64,000 nucleotides of DNA, taken from the NCBI GenBank assembly GCA_044223235.1, contig JBGAME010000003.1; one strand, given 5' to 3'. Position numbers and translations under genes: made by a program. Origin of the DNA: Mycobacterium sp. (GTDB taxonomy: Bacteria > Actinomycetota > Actinomycetes > Mycobacteriales > Mycobacteriaceae). Every line of letters starts with the position of its first letter. Within the stretch, counting starts at the first letter, position 1. The notes beneath the pieces were generated by a model. That model was not told where the DNA came from. It did not search any database and worked only from the letters and a program-made list of their open reading frames with translations. Positions 676-7,283 of the stretch are shown piece by piece.

Positions 676-775
676 TATTTGGCGGCTTCAGCCGCTCCTA
701 CACTCCCCTGAAACAATTCGGGGGAATGTCATGAGGTCAATGACGACGAACAGCGGTCCGATGTAAGGGCCGGCC

Positions 776-1075
776 GTGTACAGAATCTTCATCAGCCACG
801 CGAGCTCGGAGCTCCGTGAAGCGAAGGCCCTCAAGGACTGGCTTGTAAAGCAGGACCCTCCGCTTGCCAACGAGATATTTCTCGACGCGGAAATGATGCG
901 TCCGGGACTGCTCTGGAAAGAGCAGCTGAAGCAGGCGATGAAGAACTGCGAGGCGGTCGTCTGTATGACCTCGATCGATTGGGCCAATCGCCCCGAATGC
1001 GTCGCCGAATTCCGGACCGCGGAGTACCTCAACAAACGCATCTTCTGCGCTCGGCTGGAATCGTCCAGCGCCGAT
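776..1075 (+). other. TIR-like domain (about aa 1-100)
   Basis: It has the FISHA start motif, an alternating beta-alpha pattern and a candidate catalytic Glu near aa 78 (CVAEF). Hand counts of 781-900 give 53-60% GC, lower than the flanks. Confidence 0.7.
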
Positions 1076-4000
1076 GAGGAGACCGAGGCGTGGCAACGTG
1101 TGGACCTGTTCGGTACCGATCAGGAAGTGAAGATCCTGCTCGACGATGGTGGTCCGCCCGTCGAGTTCTCCTCCGGAGGCTTACACGGGCTCAAAGAGGA
1201 AATCATCAAGAAGGGCATCGGCGCCGACTCGTTCGTATGGCCACCCCCGGATGAACCCGGCCGCGCACCGTATCGCGGTTGGGAGCCGTTGGAAGAAGTC
1301 GATGCCGCGGTGTATTTCGGCCGGGACGCCGAACTCATCAGAGCAATGGACAAGCTTCGTGGCATGCGCAAATCCGCGGCGGAGTCGCTCTTCGTCATAC
1401 TCGGCCCATCGGGCACCGGTAAATCGTCATTCCTGCGGGCCGGGCTGCTGCCACGGTTACGCCGCGCCGACCGGGATTTCGTCGTTCTCGACAAGGTCGT
1501 CCGGCCCGAGCTCAACGTCCTGACCGGTAAGAATGGGCTCGCGGAGGCGATTTACGAGACGCGACGTCGCTGGGGTTTCACCTCGCCTCGGCTCGCCGAC
1601 ATCAAAGCTGCCTGTCTGACCGACCCCGGCAAAGTCCGCGATCTGTTGTTCGAAATCCAGTGCGCCGCGGCGAGTCCTGCTGACGACCCCGATCCCGGCG
1701 CGGATCTCGACACGGAGCAATCCCCACTTCCCACCATCGTCATACCCGTTGATCAGGCCGAGGAGCTTTTCAGCGAAGACGCGATCAACGAGGCGCCGAT
1801 CTTCCTCGACATGATCGAGCGACACGCAGTGGCCGACTTGCCGCGACAACCGCCGATCGTGGCGATCACCATCCGTACCGACCGGCACCAGGCGCTGCAG
1901 ACCGCGAAGCAACTGTCCGAGGCGAAAAGCGTGGTGTTCGACGATCTGAAACCGATGCCGCAGGGCCAGTTTCGGGAGGTGATACTTGGCCCCGCGCGAC
2001 GAGCCAGCGATGGAGGGGCACGGCTGGCGATCGAGGCGGCCCTCGTCGAACAACTGCTGGCGGACTGCACCGACGGCGCCGACACGCTTCCGCTGCTGGC
2101 ACTGACACTGGCCAGACTGTTCACCGACTATGGCCGCGACGGTGACCTGACACTGCACGAGTACACCCAGATGGGCGGGATGCGCAATGTCGTGCAGACC
2201 GAGGTCGACACCATTCTCGGCCACGACCCGACCAGAAAGCTGGACCGTCTCGAACTGTTGCGGCCTGCCTTCGTCCCCTGGCTCGCGACATTCAACCGGG
2301 ACAGCAACATTCCCATTCGGCGGGTTGCCAAGTGGGATGCGCTTCCGCCGGCATCCAAACCCCTGCTGCAGCAGTTCGTCGACAGGCGCTTGTTGATGCG
2401 CGATGCCCGCGACGGCGGTGATGTCGTCGAGATCGCGCTCGAAAGTCTGCTTCGGCAGTGGAAGGAACTCAGCAATTGGCTTGAGGCCGAACGTGCCGAC
2501 CTCAAGTTGGCCGACGACCTCAGGCACGCGGCCCTCGACTGGGACGAACGTGGCCGCGACGAGTCGGCCCTGTTCGTCGGACGACGGCTGGCCGATGCCG
2601 AGGAGTTGCTCGCCAGGCCCGACTTTCGTGAGCACCTGGAATCCGCCCGGGCATTTGTTGGGGCGTCGAAGGAGCGTGCCCGCGTACGCAGTCAACAGGA
2701 TCGGCGTCGCAAACGTGCGTTCAGATCGTTGCTGGCCGTCGCCACCGCCGCCGCGTTGATCGCCGCGGTGATCGTCGTGCAACTCACGTCGAACATCAGA
2801 CAGAACGCCGCATGGCAACTGGTGTCGGAAGCCGAGCAGATTCTGAAAGGCAGCCGGGAAGGGGGCGACGTTCAGGCCCTGCAAAAGCTGCTGGCCGCCG
2901 ATGACCTCGGGGCGGCGACCGCCGAAGCAGTCGTCAATTCGCGACGGGACGTGCTCAAGATCTTCGAGAACCCGCCGCGGGAGGGATCCACCGGTGTCAC
3001 TCCCGTGGTCAGCCTCGCGGTGCATGGGGACTTGATCGCAACGTCGAACGCCGATCACAAGGTACGAATCTGGGACACCGCCACCGGCTCGGTCAGGCAG
3101 CTGACCATCAGAGGCAATCAGGAGCCCCCAGCCGTGGCGTTCAGTCCCGACGGTACGTTGCTCGCGGCGGCAACCGGCGACAACGCCGTTCAGCTCTGGA
3201 GCATCGACGACGGTGAACCGGACGGCAAGCAGATCACGCAGCCGGAAAAGGTGTACAGCCTCGCGTTCAGTAGCGACAGTCGGCGAATCGCGACCGGCAG
3301 TGAGGACGGCACCATCCGGGTGTGGGACCGCGCGGGAAACCTTCTGGCCGAAAGCCGTTCAGCGAGTGAGAGGCGGGACGCGGTGTTGGCTGTGGCCTTC
3401 AGTCCGTCCTCGGTCGCCGGTGATGTCGTAGCGTCCGCCGGCAACGACGGGACGGTTCGGTTGTGGAATGTCGCCACGGACCGCACCCGCGAGTGGTCGG
3501 CTCCCAGCGATGTTCCGGTGAAGAGTGTGGCTTTCGATGCAACCGGTGAGCGGCTGGCGGCAGGGATCGCCGACGGGAGCATCCAGATCTTCGACGGGCG
3601 GACGCTGCATTCCGTCAGCTCAATTCCGGCGGCGCACGCCTACTCGGTGCTGAGTGTTGCCTACAGCCCCGACGGCAGCAGAATCGTTTCCGGGGGCGCC
3701 GACAACACGGTGCATGTGTGGGATGCCGCCACCAACACCAGGGTCGGCAATGCGTTGATCGGACACCACGGGCCGGTGACGGCGGTCGCGGTCACCGGGC
3801 AGGGCACCAGAATCGTCTCTGGAAGTGCGGACGGCTCCGTGCGGGTATGGGACGCGGTGACCGGACTCCCGACGCCCACCGGCCAAGGTGAGGTTCGCGG
3901 TGTGGCGTTCAGCAGCCACGGCCGGCTGATGGCGTCGGTCGGCACCGACGGCACGGTCCGCCTCTGGGACCCGGTGACCGCTGCGCCCCGAGGCCGGCTC

Positions 4001-4975
4001 GGAACTCCGTCCGACGACGGAGCCCGGACCCTCAATGCCATCGCTGTCAGTCCTGACGGGCAATCGGTTGTCACCGGGGGTCTCGACGGATCGATCCGGT
4101 TGTGGGACGTCGACCAGCCGCATCGGGTCAAGGCGCTGGTTCGTACCGCTGTCGATATGCAGTCCCTGCCGAGCCACCGGGTGCAAAGCGTCGCGTTCAG
4201 CGCCGACGGATTACTCATCGCGTCGGCCGGAATGGATGGCGAGGTTCAGCTCTGGCGTTCGGCTACCGGAGATCCGGTCGCGGGAGCGGTCGCGCACACC
4301 ACCGACGAGCAGGGACTGGCCCATCCGTACCAGGTGTGGAGTATCGCGTTCAGCCCCGACGGCAGCAAGATCGTGACCGGCGCAGGCGGTGGCAGGAATC
4401 TGGTTCAGGTCTGGAACGTCGATCCGGGCGCCGACAAAGCGGACCGCTTGGTCGAGCGCGGCGATCCGATGGTCGGTCACACCCGCGACGTCTACAGCGT
4501 GGCGTTCAGCCCCGACGGCACCGTGATCGCGTCGGCCGGCGCTGACGGGACTGCACGCCTGTGGGACGTCGACACCGGCCGACAAAGCGGAAACTCGATG
4601 AGCATCGGGCAGAACCCGTTGTTCAGTGTGGCCTTCGCTCACAGCCATCCGTGGATCGTTGCCGGCAGTGAGGACGGGAAGGTCCGGCTGTGGAACATCG
4701 GCGGTGTGCAACCCGAACCGATCGGAACTCCCTTGGAAGGCCACAAGAACTGGGTCTACAGCGTGGCGTTCAGCCCCGATGACGCGCTGATCGTCTCGGG
4801 AAGCGCCGACGGGAACATCCACCTCTGGTCGGCGCCGACCGATCACCTGTCCGAGGTGATCTGCAGCAAGCTGGTGACCGATATGAGCGAAGAGCAATGG
4901 CACCAATGGATTTCAGACAGTTTTGTCATCCGCTACAAGAAGTTGTGCGCGCGGGTCGCCGATTCTCGGCGATAG
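776..4975 (+). CDS. TIR domain - STAND-type P-loop NTPase - TM helix - 14x WD40 repeat protein (1,399 aa)
   Basis: One uninterrupted ORF. The N-terminus MYRIFISHAS...SIDWANRPECVAEF looks like a bacterial TIR. PYRGWEPLEEVDAAVYFGRDAEL is followed by Walker A GPSGTGKS and Walker B IVIPVDQAEE. A hydrophobic helix SLLAVATAAALIAAVIVVQLT follows. Fourteen blades each end in [VI]x[VLI][WF][DNSR]. Confidence 0.9.
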   Translation: MYRIFISHASSELREAKALKDWLVKQDPPLANEIFLDAEMMRPGLLWKEQLKQAMKNCEAVVCMTSIDWANRPECVAEFRTAEYLNKRIFCARLESSSADEETEAWQRVDLFGTDQEVKILLDDGGPPVEFSSGGLHGLKEEIIKKGIGADSFVWPPPDEPGRAPYRGWEPLEEVDAAVYFGRDAELIRAMDKLRGMRKSAAESLFVILGPSGTGKSSFLRAGLLPRLRRADRDFVVLDKVVRPELNVLTGKNGLAEAIYETRRRWGFTSPRLADIKAACLTDPGKVRDLLFEIQCAAASPADDPDPGADLDTEQSPLPTIVIPVDQAEELFSEDAINEAPIFLDMIERHAVADLPRQPPIVAITIRTDRHQALQTAKQLSEAKSVVFDDLKPMPQGQFREVILGPARRASDGGARLAIEAALVEQLLADCTDGADTLPLLALTLARLFTDYGRDGDLTLHEYTQMGGMRNVVQTEVDTILGHDPTRKLDRLELLRPAFVPWLATFNRDSNIPIRRVAKWDALPPASKPLLQQFVDRRLLMRDARDGGDVVEIALESLLRQWKELSNWLEAERADLKLADDLRHAALDWDERGRDESALFVGRRLADAEELLARPDFREHLESARAFVGASKERARVRSQQDRRRKRAFRSLLAVATAAALIAAVIVVQLTSNIRQNAAWQLVSEAEQILKGSREGGDVQALQKLLAADDLGAATAEAVVNSRRDVLKIFENPPREGSTGVTPVVSLAVHGDLIATSNADHKVRIWDTATGSVRQLTIRGNQEPPAVAFSPDGTLLAAATGDNAVQLWSIDDGEPDGKQITQPEKVYSLAFSSDSRRIATGSEDGTIRVWDRAGNLLAESRSASERRDAVLAVAFSPSSVAGDVVASAGNDGTVRLWNVATDRTREWSAPSDVPVKSVAFDATGERLAAGIADGSIQIFDGRTLHSVSSIPAAHAYSVLSVAYSPDGSRIVSGGADNTVHVWDAATNTRVGNALIGHHGPVTAVAVTGQGTRIVSGSADGSVRVWDAVTGLPTPTGQGEVRGVAFSSHGRLMASVGTDGTVRLWDPVTAAPRGRLGTPSDDGARTLNAIAVSPDGQSVVTGGLDGSIRLWDVDQPHRVKALVRTAVDMQSLPSHRVQSVAFSADGLLIASAGMDGEVQLWRSATGDPVAGAVAHTTDEQGLAHPYQVWSIAFSPDGSKIVTGAGGGRNLVQVWNVDPGADKADRLVERGDPMVGHTRDVYSVAFSPDGTVIASAGADGTARLWDVDTGRQSGNSMSIGQNPLFSVAFAHSHPWIVAGSEDGKVRLWNIGGVQPEPIGTPLEGHKNWVYSVAFSPDDALIVSGSADGNIHLWSAPTDHLSEVICSKLVTDMSEEQWHQWISDSFVIRYKKLCARVADSRR
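1403..1426 (+). other. Walker A (P-loop) GPSGTGKS of the STAND NTPase
   Basis: ggc cca tcg ggc acc ggt aaa tcg, in frame with the ORF that starts at 776. Confidence 0.9.
2726..2788 (+). other. Predicted single transmembrane helix between the NTPase and WD40 modules
   Basis: About 21 uncharged residues SLLAVATAAALIAAVIVVQLT, preceded by the basic cluster QQDRRRKRAFR (positive-inside signature). Confidence 0.6.
3008..4840 (+). repeat. 14 tandem WD40 blades, enough for two 7-bladed propellers; near-identical DNA cores recur
   Basis: Blade ends read VRIWD, VQLWS, IRVWD, VRLWN, IQIFD, VHVWD, VRVWD, VRLWD, IRLWD, VQLWR, VQVWN, ARLWD, VRLWN, IHLWS. The core GTGGCGTTCAGCCCCGACGG (VAFSPDG) or a close variant recurs at least 5 times. 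Confidence 0.85.
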
Positions 4976-5006: not shown

Positions 5007-5318
5007 GTGATACTCGTCCATCGATTCCTGGCCGCCGTGGGTGGGACAGCAGTCATGATGTCCTCGGTTGCGGCCGCCACGGCATTCGCGCAGCCATCGG
5101 ACCCCTGCCGGCTCTACCCCAGACCCAAAACGTGCGAGACGCCCACGATGACCGGCCCGACGGCGAAAACTCCGACGGTGAAGGGTACGCCGACTCCGGC
5201 GAAGCCATCCGCCCCTGGGCGGACGAACACCAGGGCCAGCGGGACGGCGATCGCCGCGATACCTACGGGGATCTCGTATGCGGTTCTGCAGGTGCAGCTG
5301 CCGTCAAGCCCCTCGTGA
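5007..5318 (+). CDS. Small Pro/Thr-rich hypothetical protein with an N-terminal signal-like segment
   Basis: AAAGGAGG RBS lies 7 nt before the GTG at 5007. The N-terminus VILVHRFLAAVGGTAVMMSSVAAATAFA looks like a signal peptide, followed by TPTVKGTPTPAKPSAPG. A strong hairpin follows the stop codon. The opposite strand also shows a hydrophobic frame, so the call is tentative. Confidence 0.4.
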   Translation: MILVHRFLAAVGGTAVMMSSVAAATAFAQPSDPCRLYPRPKTCETPTMTGPTAKTPTVKGTPTPAKPSAPGRTNTRASGTAIAAIPTGISYAVLQVQLPSSPS

Positions 5319-5381: not shown

Positions 5382-7235
5382 TCAGAACGCCGCTTCGCTC
5401 AGCTCCATGACGTCGTTGTCGAGCTGTTCGATCACCTGGCGCGTGCCGGTCAGCAGCGGCAGGAAGTTCTTGGCGAAGAAGGACGCCACTGCGACCTTGC
5501 CCTCGTAGAAGGCGCGATCGTCGCCGCCGGACGTCCCAGGCGCCCCGGCCGCGGCATCGAGCTGTGCGATCGCCACGGCGCCATGCTGGAGCAGCAGCCA
5601 TCCGATGACAAGGTCGCCGACACTCATCAGGAAGCGGACCGAACCCAGGCCCACCTTGTAGATGTTCTTCGGATCCTCCTGCGCCGACATGAGATAGCCC
5701 GTCAGCGTCGCAGCCATCGCCTGGACGTCGGTGAGCGCCGTCGCAAGCAGCGCGCGCTCGGTCTTGAGCCGACCGTCACCCGCCTCGTTCTTGATGAACT
5801 TGTCGATCTGGCCGGCCACATGCGCCAGAGCCACGCCCTTGTCGCGGACGATCTTGCGGAAGAAGAAGTCCTGCGCCTGGATGGCGGTGGTGCCCTCGTA
5901 GAGCGAATCGATCTTGGCGTCGCGGATGTACTGCTCGATGGGGTAGTCCTGCAGGAAGCCCGAACCGCCGTAGGTCTGCAGGCTCTCGGTGAGCTTGGCA
6001 TAGGCCTGTTCCGAGCCGACGCCCTTTACCAGCGGCAGCATCAGGTCGTTGACCTTCACCGCCAGTCCCGCGTCGACGCCGTGCAGCGCCTCGGCGACGG
6101 CCGAATCCTGATAAGTCGCGGTGAACAGGTACAGGGCGCGTAAACCCTCGGCGTAGGCCTTCTGGGTCATCAGGCTGCGGCGCACGTCGGGATGGTGGGT
6201 AATCGACACGCGGGGTGCGGCCTTGTCGGTCATCTGGACCATGTCCGCGCCCTGAACACGGCTCTTGGCGTACTCCAGCGCGTTGAGGTAACCGGTCGAC
6301 AGCGTCGCGATCGCCTTCGTGCCGACCATCATGCGGGCCTGCTCGATGACGTCGAACATCTGCGCGATGCCGTCGTGCACCTCGCCGACCAGCCAACCCT
6401 TGGCGGGGACGCCGTGCTGACCCAGCGAGAGCTCGCAGGTGGCCGAAACCTTCAGGCCCATCTTGTGTTCGACGTTGGTGACGAAGACGCCGTTGCGCTC
6501 GCCCGGCTCACCGGTCTCCGGATCGAACAGGAACTTCGGAACGAAGAACAGCGACAGCCCCTTGGTGCCGGGGCCCGCACCCTCGGGACGGGCCAGCACC
6601 AGATGGAAGATGTTCTCGAACATATCGTCGGAATCGCCGGACGTGATGAACCGCTTCACGCCCTCGATGTGCCACGAGCCGTCGTCCTGCTTGACAGCCT
6701 TGGTGCGTCCTGCGCCCACGTCGGAGCCTGCATCGGGTTCGGTCAGCACCATGGTGGCGCCCCAGCCGCGATCGGTGGCCAGCACGGCCCACTTCTTCTG
6801 CTCTTCGGTGCCGAGCTTGTAGAAGATGCTGGCGAAGCCTGCGCCGCCGCCGTACATCCACACCGCGGGGTTCGCTCCGAGCAGGTGTTCGTGCAGGGCC
6901 CAGACGAGTGCCTTCGGCATGGGCATGCCGCCGAGTTCCTCTTCGACGCCCACCTTGTCCCAGCCGCCGTCGATGACGGCGCGTACGGATTTCTTGAACG
7001 ACTCGGGCAGCGTCACCGTGTGCGTCTTGGGATCGAATGTCGGTGGGTTGCGGTCGCCGTCGGCGAACGAATCCGCAACCGGCCCCTCGGCCAGCCGGGC
7101 CATCTCGCCCAGCATCTCGCGTACGGTATCCGCGTCCAGATCGCTGAACGCGCCCGCACCGAGCGCCTTGTCGAGGCCCAGCACCTCGAAGAGGTTAAAT
7201 ACCTGGTCACGGACGTTGCTCTTGTAGTGGGACAC
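5382..7235 (-). CDS. fadE5: Acyl-CoA dehydrogenase, long FadE5 type
   Basis: The N-terminus (V)[19 protein letters not shown] matches my recollection of M. tuberculosis FadE5. A GGAGGA RBS lies before the GTG at 7235. The track start at 7274 adds an unlikely 13 aa. Confidence 0.9.
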
Positions 7236-7283
7236 TTTTCCTCCTCGATGAGAACGCCACTCGCGGTTGGGCACTCTGGGTCA

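Follow-up and report, generated by a model that had tools for sequence, protein, structure and literature searches.

Proteins of the nSTAND1 family were defined in 2021 as STAND components of conflict systems that carry TIR and other effectors (Kaur, Burroughs, Iyer & Aravind, PMC8195603), and the passage of that source devoted to them describes an N-terminal effector, TIR being among those listed, and a variable C-terminal sensor. The same plan is found in a gene located at 776..4975 on the + strand of a 64,000-nucleotide stretch of Mycobacterium sp. DNA (assembly GCA_044223235.1, contig JBGAME010000003.1; hereafter the window), whose product of 1,399 aa combines, according to Pfam matches and the translation, a TIR domain, an nSTAND1 NTPase, a single transmembrane (TM) helix, 14 WD40 repeats, and a C-terminal cap. 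The nSTAND1 passage in PMC8195603 concerns FGS-sensor versions, from which the single-pass TM and the WD40 repeats found here differ. With a confidence somewhat better than even, the gene is read as coding for a receptor of the TIR-nSTAND1 kind, horizontally acquired, encoded by a single gene, and of conflict or immune type, that would cross the membrane once, act from the outside in, and cleave NAD+. What is newly added is evidence that most of the TIR-nSTAND1 family are probably single-pass receptors with the WD40 sensor outside; neither the single-pass TM and WD40 form nor this topology was found stated for nSTAND1 in the literature searched.

Several characterized or predicted proteins resemble this one in part. 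Avs5 (Sir2 - nSTAND3 - TPR/Sel1; AVAST type 5) is an experimentally validated antiphage protein (bioRxiv 10.1101/2025.07.08.663546) which shares the encoding by a single gene, an NAD-targeting N-terminal effector, a repeat sensor, and an ATPase of a sister 'novel STAND' family, but has nSTAND3 and not nSTAND1, Sir2 and not TIR, alpha-helical repeats and not WD40, and no described TM. The plant TIR-NLR RPP1 (7dfv/7crc) has the same order of TIR and then STAND and differs by its leucine-rich repeat (LRR) sensor, its cytosolic location, and an identity of only ~12%; Apaf-1 (3sfz) couples a STAND module to the same kind of WD40 propeller sensor but is cytosolic, ~12% identical, and without a TM that separates the switch from the sensor. 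Among bacterial NACHT proteins, those with TM regions (Kibby et al., 10.1101/2022.07.19.500537) also belong to the STAND proteins of immunity, TIR being the effector in some, and the sensing of periplasmic signals was suggested for them; they form part of to a clade other than nSTAND1 and have multiple TMs, not one TM and a large ectodomain. Toll-like receptors share, by analogy only, the logic of a repeat ectodomain, one TM, and a cytoplasmic TIR working via induced proximity; in contrast, their orientation is opposite, they have no STAND ATPase, and their ectodomain is made of LRRs, whereas here an N-terminal TIR is followed by STAND and WD40, and there is no homology beyond the TIR fold. 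Finally, in Ser/Thr kinases of another phylum, Planctomycetota (PMC11032199), a cytoplasmic domain that uses nucleotides is followed by a single TM and a long WD40 array with a predicted location outside, in the periplasm, but their output is a kinase in place of TIR and STAND. Compared in this way, the working mode would be closest to that of Avs5 and plant TIR-NLRs, and the sensing geometry would recall Toll-like receptors and TM-bearing NACHT proteins.

The TIR domain (aa 4-118, with a predicted fold extending to ~aa 145; 785..1129, + strand) matches Pfam TIR_2 (PF13676) with 48.3 bits against a cutoff of 28 (E=1.7e-12), in line with the TIR-like N-terminus proposed in an earlier sequence-only reading of the window. 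In the AlphaFold2 (AF2) model, aa 4-145 show an alternating strand/helix topology, and the MAL TIR 5uzb is a fold match in Foldseek against PDB (TMt 0.73, root-mean-square deviation 2.6 Å). The motif FISHAS is located at aa 5-10 and CVAEF at aa 75-79; the latter contains E78 (codon 1007..1009, + strand), the candidate catalytic glutamate of helix alphaC (S66..W69..C75..E78) on the basis of conservation. In fact, E78 and C75 are each invariant in 111/111 homologues, E78 also in A1/A3, and the suggestion of a catalytic Glu near aa 78 made in the sequence-only reading passed this conservation check. Other (nearly) invariant residues of the domain in the 111 homologues are W69, S66, C58/E59, D37, G44, and W47. 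In the AF2 model E78 lies in helix 73-84, after strand 60-65 (strand C); the canonical WC..E context is present in rhizobial relatives and takes here the form S..W..C..E. In a family-profile comparison, the C..E of SpbK (9phb), a Bacillus TIR protein of solved structure, is paired weakly (E=0.02) with C75/E78, and the matches of the profile to MyD88 and SIGIRR are weak, partial, and do not display the catalytic Glu context; single-sequence phmmer of the TIR region against PDB gave no matches, and the family profile gave weak TIR matches only. From its conservation and modeled position, E78 is taken to be the catalytic-type Glu of the TIR domain.

The nSTAND1 NTPase module (aa 165-596; 1268..2563, + strand) includes the PYRGW..FGRD pre-motif (PYRGWEPLEEVDAAVYFGRDAEL, aa 165-187 of the 1,399-aa protein) and matches PF20703 with 217.2-219.5 bits against a cutoff of 27.1 (E=7e-64), over 378/379 model positions. 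Walker A (GPSGTGKS, aa 210-217; 1403..1426, + strand; K216 at nt 1421-1423) is recognized by motif and conservation: G210, S212, G213, G215, K216, and S217 are (nearly) invariant, K216 being invariant in the 111 homologues, in which the pre-motif is also (nearly) invariant. Walker B (IVIPVDQAEE, with VDQAEE at aa 325-330; 1736..1765, + strand) has D326, Q327, E329, and E330 invariant; R367 in TIR(T)DR (1874..1876, + strand), a candidate sensor-1 arginine, is invariant in the alignments; and the GxP-like motif DTLPLLALTL (2081-2110, + strand) has D436, L438, P439, L441, and L443 invariant. By analogy, R367 and DTLPLLALTL may be the counterparts of the NB-ARC 'TTR' and 'GLPL' motifs. Membership in NB-ARC and NACHT was rejected since no hidden Markov model (HMM) of either matched aa 161-735 at E<=1, where nSTAND1 and generic AAA models only were listed.

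The AF2 model of aa 1-720, obtained from a 61-sequence alignment (mean predicted local distance difference test score (pLDDT) 89.8, predicted template modeling score (pTM) 0.81), comprises a TIR-type domain, an NTPase with nucleotide-binding, helical, and winged-helix domains, and a single continuous helix at aa 622-690 which includes the TM. Its Foldseek matches in PDB are ORC/Cdc6, RPP1, MalT, SAMD9, Apaf-1, and NLRC4, with E 2e-6 to 4e-3 for MalT, Apaf-1, NLRC4, RPP1, and ORC/Cdc6; the alignment with RPP1 extends over 617 columns, covering TIR plus NTPase. All the motifs quoted in the sequence-only reading are present in the 1,399-aa translation where it had placed them; its P-loop STAND module is upheld by the nSTAND1 match of 217-219 bits and the invariant Walker A, Walker B, and sensor-1 Arg residues, and its effector-switch-sensor arrangement by the HMM matches, the invariant Glu and Walker Lys, and the folds of RPP1, Apaf-1, NLRC4, and MalT.

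The C-terminal region carries 14 WD40 repeats that can be read by sequence at aa 744-1357 with a period of 39-52 aa (3005..4846, + strand), as many as had been counted before; the Pfam WD40 match has E=2.8e-108 with 12 individually significant stretches, and, on the topology indicators discussed below, the array is predicted to be an extracytoplasmic sensor. In the AF2 model of aa 701-1399, aa ~956-1378 are confidently beta-propeller and match closed seven-bladed propellers (Thermomonospora PkwA 5yzv, TMt 0.85; designed 7bie, TMt 0.87), the best Foldseek E-value being that of 2ymu, the Nostoc 'highly repetitive propeller structure'. The first five blades (the first 255 residues of the model) have pLDDT<50 and a mis-registered alignment; they are unreliably modeled because MAFFT aligned the additional blades with STAND columns in homologues that are shorter. 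Two seven-bladed propellers, as previously proposed, are therefore likely but half verified, the C-terminal part being sustained by the fold matches and the N-terminal blades not. The blades are 60-75% identical at the DNA level, and Tandem Repeats Finder (TRF) and a repeat finder run on the array detected no DNA tandem repeats and no recent homogenization; the blades are old and give no sign of repeat shuffling of the kind seen in fungal NLRs. The identity to 60 full-length representatives is 45% in TIR, 49% in STAND, 32-33% in the WD40 halves, and 34% in the linker/TM part, so that the sensor half evolves fastest with respect to TIR and STAND.

The cap that follows the last blade (4847..4972, + strand) is recognized by a family motif, LC.KLT.NMS..QW..WVSP.I.Y...CP(.LP), in which two Cys residues are ~28 residues apart; no Pfam model matches it, and it occurs in TM as well as soluble forms (P0012, P0028, P0122-P0134, and others). 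In the mycobacterial protein the pair corresponds to C1363 and C1391, the sole cysteines beyond the TM, seven others being in the predicted cytoplasmic part.

Between switch and sensor, a basic juxtamembrane segment (RVRSQQDRRRKRAFR, with 8 K+R; 2681..2725, + strand) is followed by the single TM helix (SLLAVATAAALIAAVIVVQLTSNI, aa 651-674; 2726..2797, + strand), which lies within the predicted helix aa 622-690 and consists of 24 uncharged residues with a Kyte-Doolittle value of 2.6 over 19 residues, and then by a conserved linker (..WQLVSEAEQILKGSREGGDVQALQKLLAA..; 2798..3004, + strand) that is common to TM and TM-less forms. One strong hydrophobic helix is present at the same position in 81/95 WD40-bearing cluster representatives; in the TM-less WD40 forms the basic segment and the helix are cleanly absent and the end of STAND is joined straight to the conserved linker. 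Since NAD+ and ATP are needed, TIR and ATPase must be cytoplasmic and, with a single span, all that comes after the helix would therefore be outside. The distribution of charges points in the same direction: K+R in the 15 aa before and after the TM are 8 vs 1 in this protein and, as family means, 5.3 vs 3.2, and the side before the helix is richer in 88 and the side after it in 7 of 100 representatives, kinship ignored. Moreover, the paralogues with a C-terminal module of extracytoplasmic type (three with CHASE2, one with Lcl_C) have a TM immediately before the module, further TMs following the CHASE2 domain, and a TM is lacking from those that carry HATPase_c, TrkA_N+RyR, caspase, Sel1, or NHL.

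A third indicator comes from cysteines. The C-terminal Cys pair alone was rejected as an export marker, and the parity of all post-TM Cys residues was used instead, because the soluble forms carry the pair as well. The comparison covered WD40 forms of full length whose C-terminal cap is intact (51 TM, 11 soluble): the post-TM Cys count is even for 41/51 TM forms (binomial p≈1.5e-5), 26 of which have exactly two, and for 1/11 soluble forms (Fisher p≈1.6e-5 for TM vs soluble, kinship ignored), and the Cys content of this region is 0.42% in the former vs 0.80% in the latter. An even-Cys bias in exported proteins of aerobic Actinobacteria, with which these counts agree, has been attributed to disulfide formation (PMC2823432), and the planctomycete kinases provide a precedent for a WD40 array predicted in the periplasm behind one TM (PMC11032199). 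Positive-inside charge, domain logic, and Cys parity appear as three independent indicators agreeing on WD40 outside, and they argue strongly for TIR and ATPase inside and for the WD40 double propeller and the Cys-paired cap outside, in the mycobacterial periplasm-like space. The sequence-only reading had listed the TM without drawing this consequence; the cytosolic sensing that it implied is contradicted by charge, paralogue domains, and Cys parity.

The same observations bear on a cytosolic antiphage sensor similar to Avs or Apaf-1, whose propellers would bind an intracellular phage protein and whose helix would be a mere tether or no true TM. The tripartite effector-STAND-repeat logic, described also in characterized Avs including the nSTAND3-bearing Avs5, the fold matches to Apaf-1, RPP1, and NLRC4, and the existence of soluble WD40 paralogues with the same linker and cap would suit such a sensor, which is nevertheless quite improbable since the uncharged 24-residue helix (Kyte-Doolittle 2.6) with 8 K+R on its N-terminal side corresponds to a standard signal-anchor, one span behind an N-terminus that uses ATP and NAD+ in the cytoplasm leaves the C-terminus outside, in agreement with domain logic and Cys parity, and no Avs model was matched by PADLOC. 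This program found, apart from the WD40-driven HEAT-ARM_XIII, no defense model in the protein, the P-loop matches being sub-threshold, and a scan with NCBIfam gave no equivalog. Avs/AVAST membership was rejected on the lack of a PADLOC match, and the Avs likeness drawn previously does not hold as membership, the sensor being also placed outside by the TM and the topology indicators. Membership in Thoeris was rejected (ThcB4 of NCBIfam, 15.7 bits vs a cutoff of 220; no signal-reading neighbor), as was membership in FxsC / FxSxx-COOH (FxsC_Nterm of NCBIfam, 21.5 bits vs a cutoff of 130).

The membrane helix could also be the effector itself if STAND oligomerization bundled the TMs of several protomers into a membrane lesion, TIR having a secondary role; the formation of a ring would gather several TM helices, and the continuous helix aa 622-690 would link the oligomerizing module to the membrane. 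This is scarcely probable, since the invariant TIR is kept in TM-less paralogues, the TM is poorly conserved (34% identity in the linker/TM part), and each protomer would contribute one Ala/Val-rich helix lacking a polar face.

For the receptor proposed here, a mechanism can be outlined by analogy with characterized STAND proteins and TIR NADases. An envelope ligand, such as a phage component at adsorption or injection, a competitor toxin, or a product of cell-wall damage, would bind the WD40 propellers and free the protein from autoinhibition via the long juxtamembrane helix; nSTAND1 would then exchange or bind ATP and oligomerize within the plane of the membrane, and the N-terminal TIR domains, brought together, would become an active NADase. 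The depletion of NAD+, or the generation of ADP-ribose (ADPR)-type products, would lead to growth stop or death before the threat spreads. Direct depletion of NAD+ is favored over Thoeris-like signaling because no adjacent effector gene able to read a TIR signal was found here or at four homologue loci; a recent survey likewise treats TIRs in Avs or standalone proteins as NAD+-depleting effectors. In soluble paralogues and in those with other sensors, the TIR-nSTAND1 chassis may respond to cues arising in the cytoplasm.

A more specific proposal, advanced tentatively, is that of a bacterial 'transmembrane NLR', in which an extracytoplasmic WD40 double propeller would detect an envelope threat (a phage tail or injection machinery, an effector of a competitor, or a product of wall damage) and one helix would lead to the STAND switch and the TIR NADase. 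No characterized bacterial STAND defense protein was shown, in the literature searched, to sense outside the cytoplasmic membrane; if true, such a receptor would join the logic of Toll-like receptors (outside-in, TIR output) to that of NLRs (ATP-driven oligomerization).

The family to which the protein belongs is large. A word-indexed search retrieved 1,204 relatives with TIR_2 and nSTAND1, and HMMER, run exhaustively against 1.84 billion cluster representatives, gave 30,321 matches at E≤1e-3 and 1,744 at E≤1e-30, that is, ~1,744 clusters at 50% identity with TIR+nSTAND1 in which the ~1,400-aa form is dominant; the best 150 of the HMMER matches span TIR and nSTAND1 end to end, with a median of 1,391 aa among the 135 profiled. 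Named members come from Mycobacterium pinniadriaticum, Mycolicibacterium, Rhodococcus, Nocardia, Smaragdicoccus, and Arthrobacter, and the family is frequent in Mycobacteriales, environmental Mycobacterium and Mycolicibacterium among them; RefSeq labels them as 'TIR domain-containing protein' or 'nSTAND1 domain-containing NTPase'. The architecture is thus not rare, being the dominant form of a large family annotated by RefSeq in Mycobacterium, Mycolicibacterium, Nocardia, and Rhodococcus, even if no paper characterizing any TIR-nSTAND1 member was found in the literature searched, the sequence-only reading having named no characterized member of this architecture for mycobacteria. On the same chassis, the alternative C-terminal modules are CHASE2, Lcl_C, FGE-sulfatase, Sel1, NHL, caspase, TrkA_N+RyR, and HATPase_c (P0038, P0253, P0239, P0222, P0233, P0241, P0180, P0214, P0103, and P0057); P0195, P0237, P0247, P0255, and P0259 have a TM and a tail of 400-1,000 aa in which no Pfam domain was matched.

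The homologues are located at different loci: one between pepQ and efp, one among Mce4 and TetR genes, one in Nocardia between an RHS toxin and an integrase/SLATT/JetD-like island, and one, P0078, near dnaB beside insertion sequence (IS) elements and a small TIR_2 + TPR-S pair. Distant members with the same plan (37-38% identity) occur in tandem among IS elements on Rhizobium and Sinorhizobium megaplasmids. The conflict character of the family is drawn from this recurrence at unrelated loci, beside IS, integrase, RHS, SLATT, and TIR_2+TPR-S genes and as megaplasmid tandems. As for details of these loci, the pair near P0078 (L082 7365-8853) consists of a TIR_2 protein of 203 aa and then a TPR-S protein, ~1 kb upstream of P0078 and near IS/Tn3-like fragments, and may be a second TIR-based conflict module. 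On Rhizobium leguminosarum pRL31b3 (L086 967-13770), two TIR-nSTAND1-TM-repeat paralogues of 1,473 and 1,589 aa are ~3.6 kb apart among IS110, IS3, and IS256 on a conjugative megaplasmid; inspection by eye shows WD40 in one of them and different repeats in the other. At L081 10001-14205 and L082 10001-14210 the WD40 array is split, with a second open reading frame (ORF; 389 aa and 166 aa, respectively) directly after the main gene, which could be due to frameshift decay or to an error in long-read metagenome assembly.

A non-immune role can also be considered, that of an outside-in receptor whose ecto-WD40 senses an environmental, cell-wall, or kin/competitor cue and whose TIR makes a signaling nucleotide or tunes NAD+ in order to regulate dormancy, development, or contact responses and not to abort phage infection. 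The chassis carries CHASE2, dCache (weak), HATPase_c, and TrkA_N; the intergenic slot occupied by the gene holds Ser/Thr kinases and two-component systems elsewhere; the context here is housekeeping; nothing links the family to phages; and the membrane kinases with predicted periplasmic WD40 are signaling proteins. Such a role is judged rather unlikely, because no adjacent gene is able to read a TIR-made signal, the patchy, mobile, and paralogue-rich spread near IS/RHS/SLATT together with the fast-evolving sensor suits conflict systems better, and the nSTAND1 passage of PMC8195603 puts this family among conflict systems.

The start of the gene (GTG start, TAG stop) is fixed at 776 because an in-frame TAA at 764-766 excludes upstream starts; homologues have the same first residue (M-x-R-I/V-F-(I/L)-S-H), and a plausible ribosome-binding site (RBS) precedes it. 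An identical protein is also called in a public run assembly (Logan SRR28480390), where the exact contig is 5.6 kb. A sigma-70 promoter scan, which is uninformative for mycobacteria, found none. A small ORF at 731-766(+), MRSMTTNSGPM followed by the stop, lies in the same frame and ends 10 nt before the GTG; it may be a leader peptide or due to chance. The GC content at third codon positions (GC3) of the gene is 0.78 vs 0.84-0.89 for its neighbors. This lower GC3, the sporadic and foreign-looking occurrence, and the splitting of several relatives into two ORFs could indicate a decaying or silent passenger gene with no present function in the host, an explanation of very low probability in view of an intact 4.2-kb frame in which all the catalytic and structural motifs are kept, a plausible RBS, and a start agreeing with that of the homologues.

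The window begins in the 3' end of a fadA2-like thiolase gene (stop 208-210), which is followed by the F6 small RNA (263-319, + strand; Rfam 70.5 bits), with a terminator-like hairpin and T-run at 309-321, and by the Ms_IGR-2 small RNA (355-425, + strand; Rfam 55.4 bits); downstream there are the convergent fadE5 (5382-7274) and genes for a flavin reductase, SdhB-like and SdhA-like proteins, a subtilase, nirB, and others. Across mycobacteria, among them M. tuberculosis, the location of F6 in the interval of the convergent fadA2 and fadE5 has been described as highly conserved (PMC8557902). A FadE5 genome scan provided 80 Mycobacteriaceae loci for comparison (L001-L080; best FadE5 identity 87%), and no relative of the TIR-nSTAND1 or WD40 type is encoded within 10 kb at any of these syntenic loci, an absence from this position that had been proposed earlier for M. 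tuberculosis. The DNA common to the syntenic loci ends at ~486-490 and starts again at ~5320; this interruption makes the ~4.8-kb segment lineage-specific. Horizontal acquisition of the gene is part of its reading as a self-contained receptor of conflict or immune type and shares the confidence of that reading, somewhat above even. The flanks of the insert contain no tRNA, no integrase, and no convincing flanking repeats. A 14-nt inverted repeat, 93% complementary (AGAGCCGGCAAGGG / CCCCTGCCGGCTCT, 405-418 and 5102-5115), roughly brackets the insert; this imperfect pair was rejected as an insertion scar, being probably due to chance in DNA of 65% GC.

The fadA2-fadE5 gap is a variable cargo slot in Mycobacteriaceae, from 23 bp to 8.9 kb, whose cargo elsewhere includes luciferase-like oxidoreductases, 2-hydroxyacid dehydrogenases, TM Ser/Thr kinases, LuxR/HK two-component pairs, and lipoproteins; the gap was rejected as a defense hotspot since the cargo in other species is metabolic or signaling. 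No paralogue of the TIR gene occurs within the 64-kb window. The same insert contains an orphan ORF of 103 aa (5007..5318, + strand; called in the Logan contig), possibly co-transcribed, which starts 32 nt past the stop of the TIR gene and has an AAGGAGG RBS 7 nt before its GTG, a GC3 of 0.78, the highest in its own frame, a signal-peptide-like N-terminus (..AAATAFA|QP), a Pro/Thr-rich body, and two Cys. Its sole match among 5.8 billion proteins is itself and it is absent beside four homologues; it could be a secreted partner of the outward-facing receptor or a spurious call and, not being conserved next to homologues, is not counted as a proven partner.

Several observations weigh against the reading of the gene as an immune-type outside-in receptor. 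PADLOC defense models are unmatched; by sequence, E78 is linked weakly (E=0.02) to the active site of a TIR of solved structure; neither the charge statistics nor those of Cys parity take phylogenetic relatedness into account; and no experimental study of any TIR-nSTAND1 member was found in the literature searched. The phage collection gave no full-length relative and one weak partial match only, and so no phage link. The neighbors are housekeeping genes with no defense island, both in the window, where a defense-island setting is thus not borne out, and in 2/4 sampled homologue loci. Furthermore, 9-14 WD40-bearing relatives have no TM; a sensor of this type is therefore able to operate on the cytoplasmic side, and a strictly outside-in model does not easily accommodate this.

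The architecture is not novel as a kind, being annotated automatically in RefSeq and belonging to a family predicted computationally in 2021. If the predicted topology is true, there would be immune-type STAND receptors with an outward sensor, a mode that for some NACHT proteins had been suggested no more than in passing, and the natural TM-less paralogues could act as controls for the TIR-nSTAND1-TM-WD40 receptor. Unknown mechanisms of resistance set a limit to the therapeutic use of phages in mycobacteria, and a testable single-gene candidate is useful in this respect; the TIR gene would represent, with no surprise in kind, a testable lead for the sensing of phages or envelope threats in mycobacteria.

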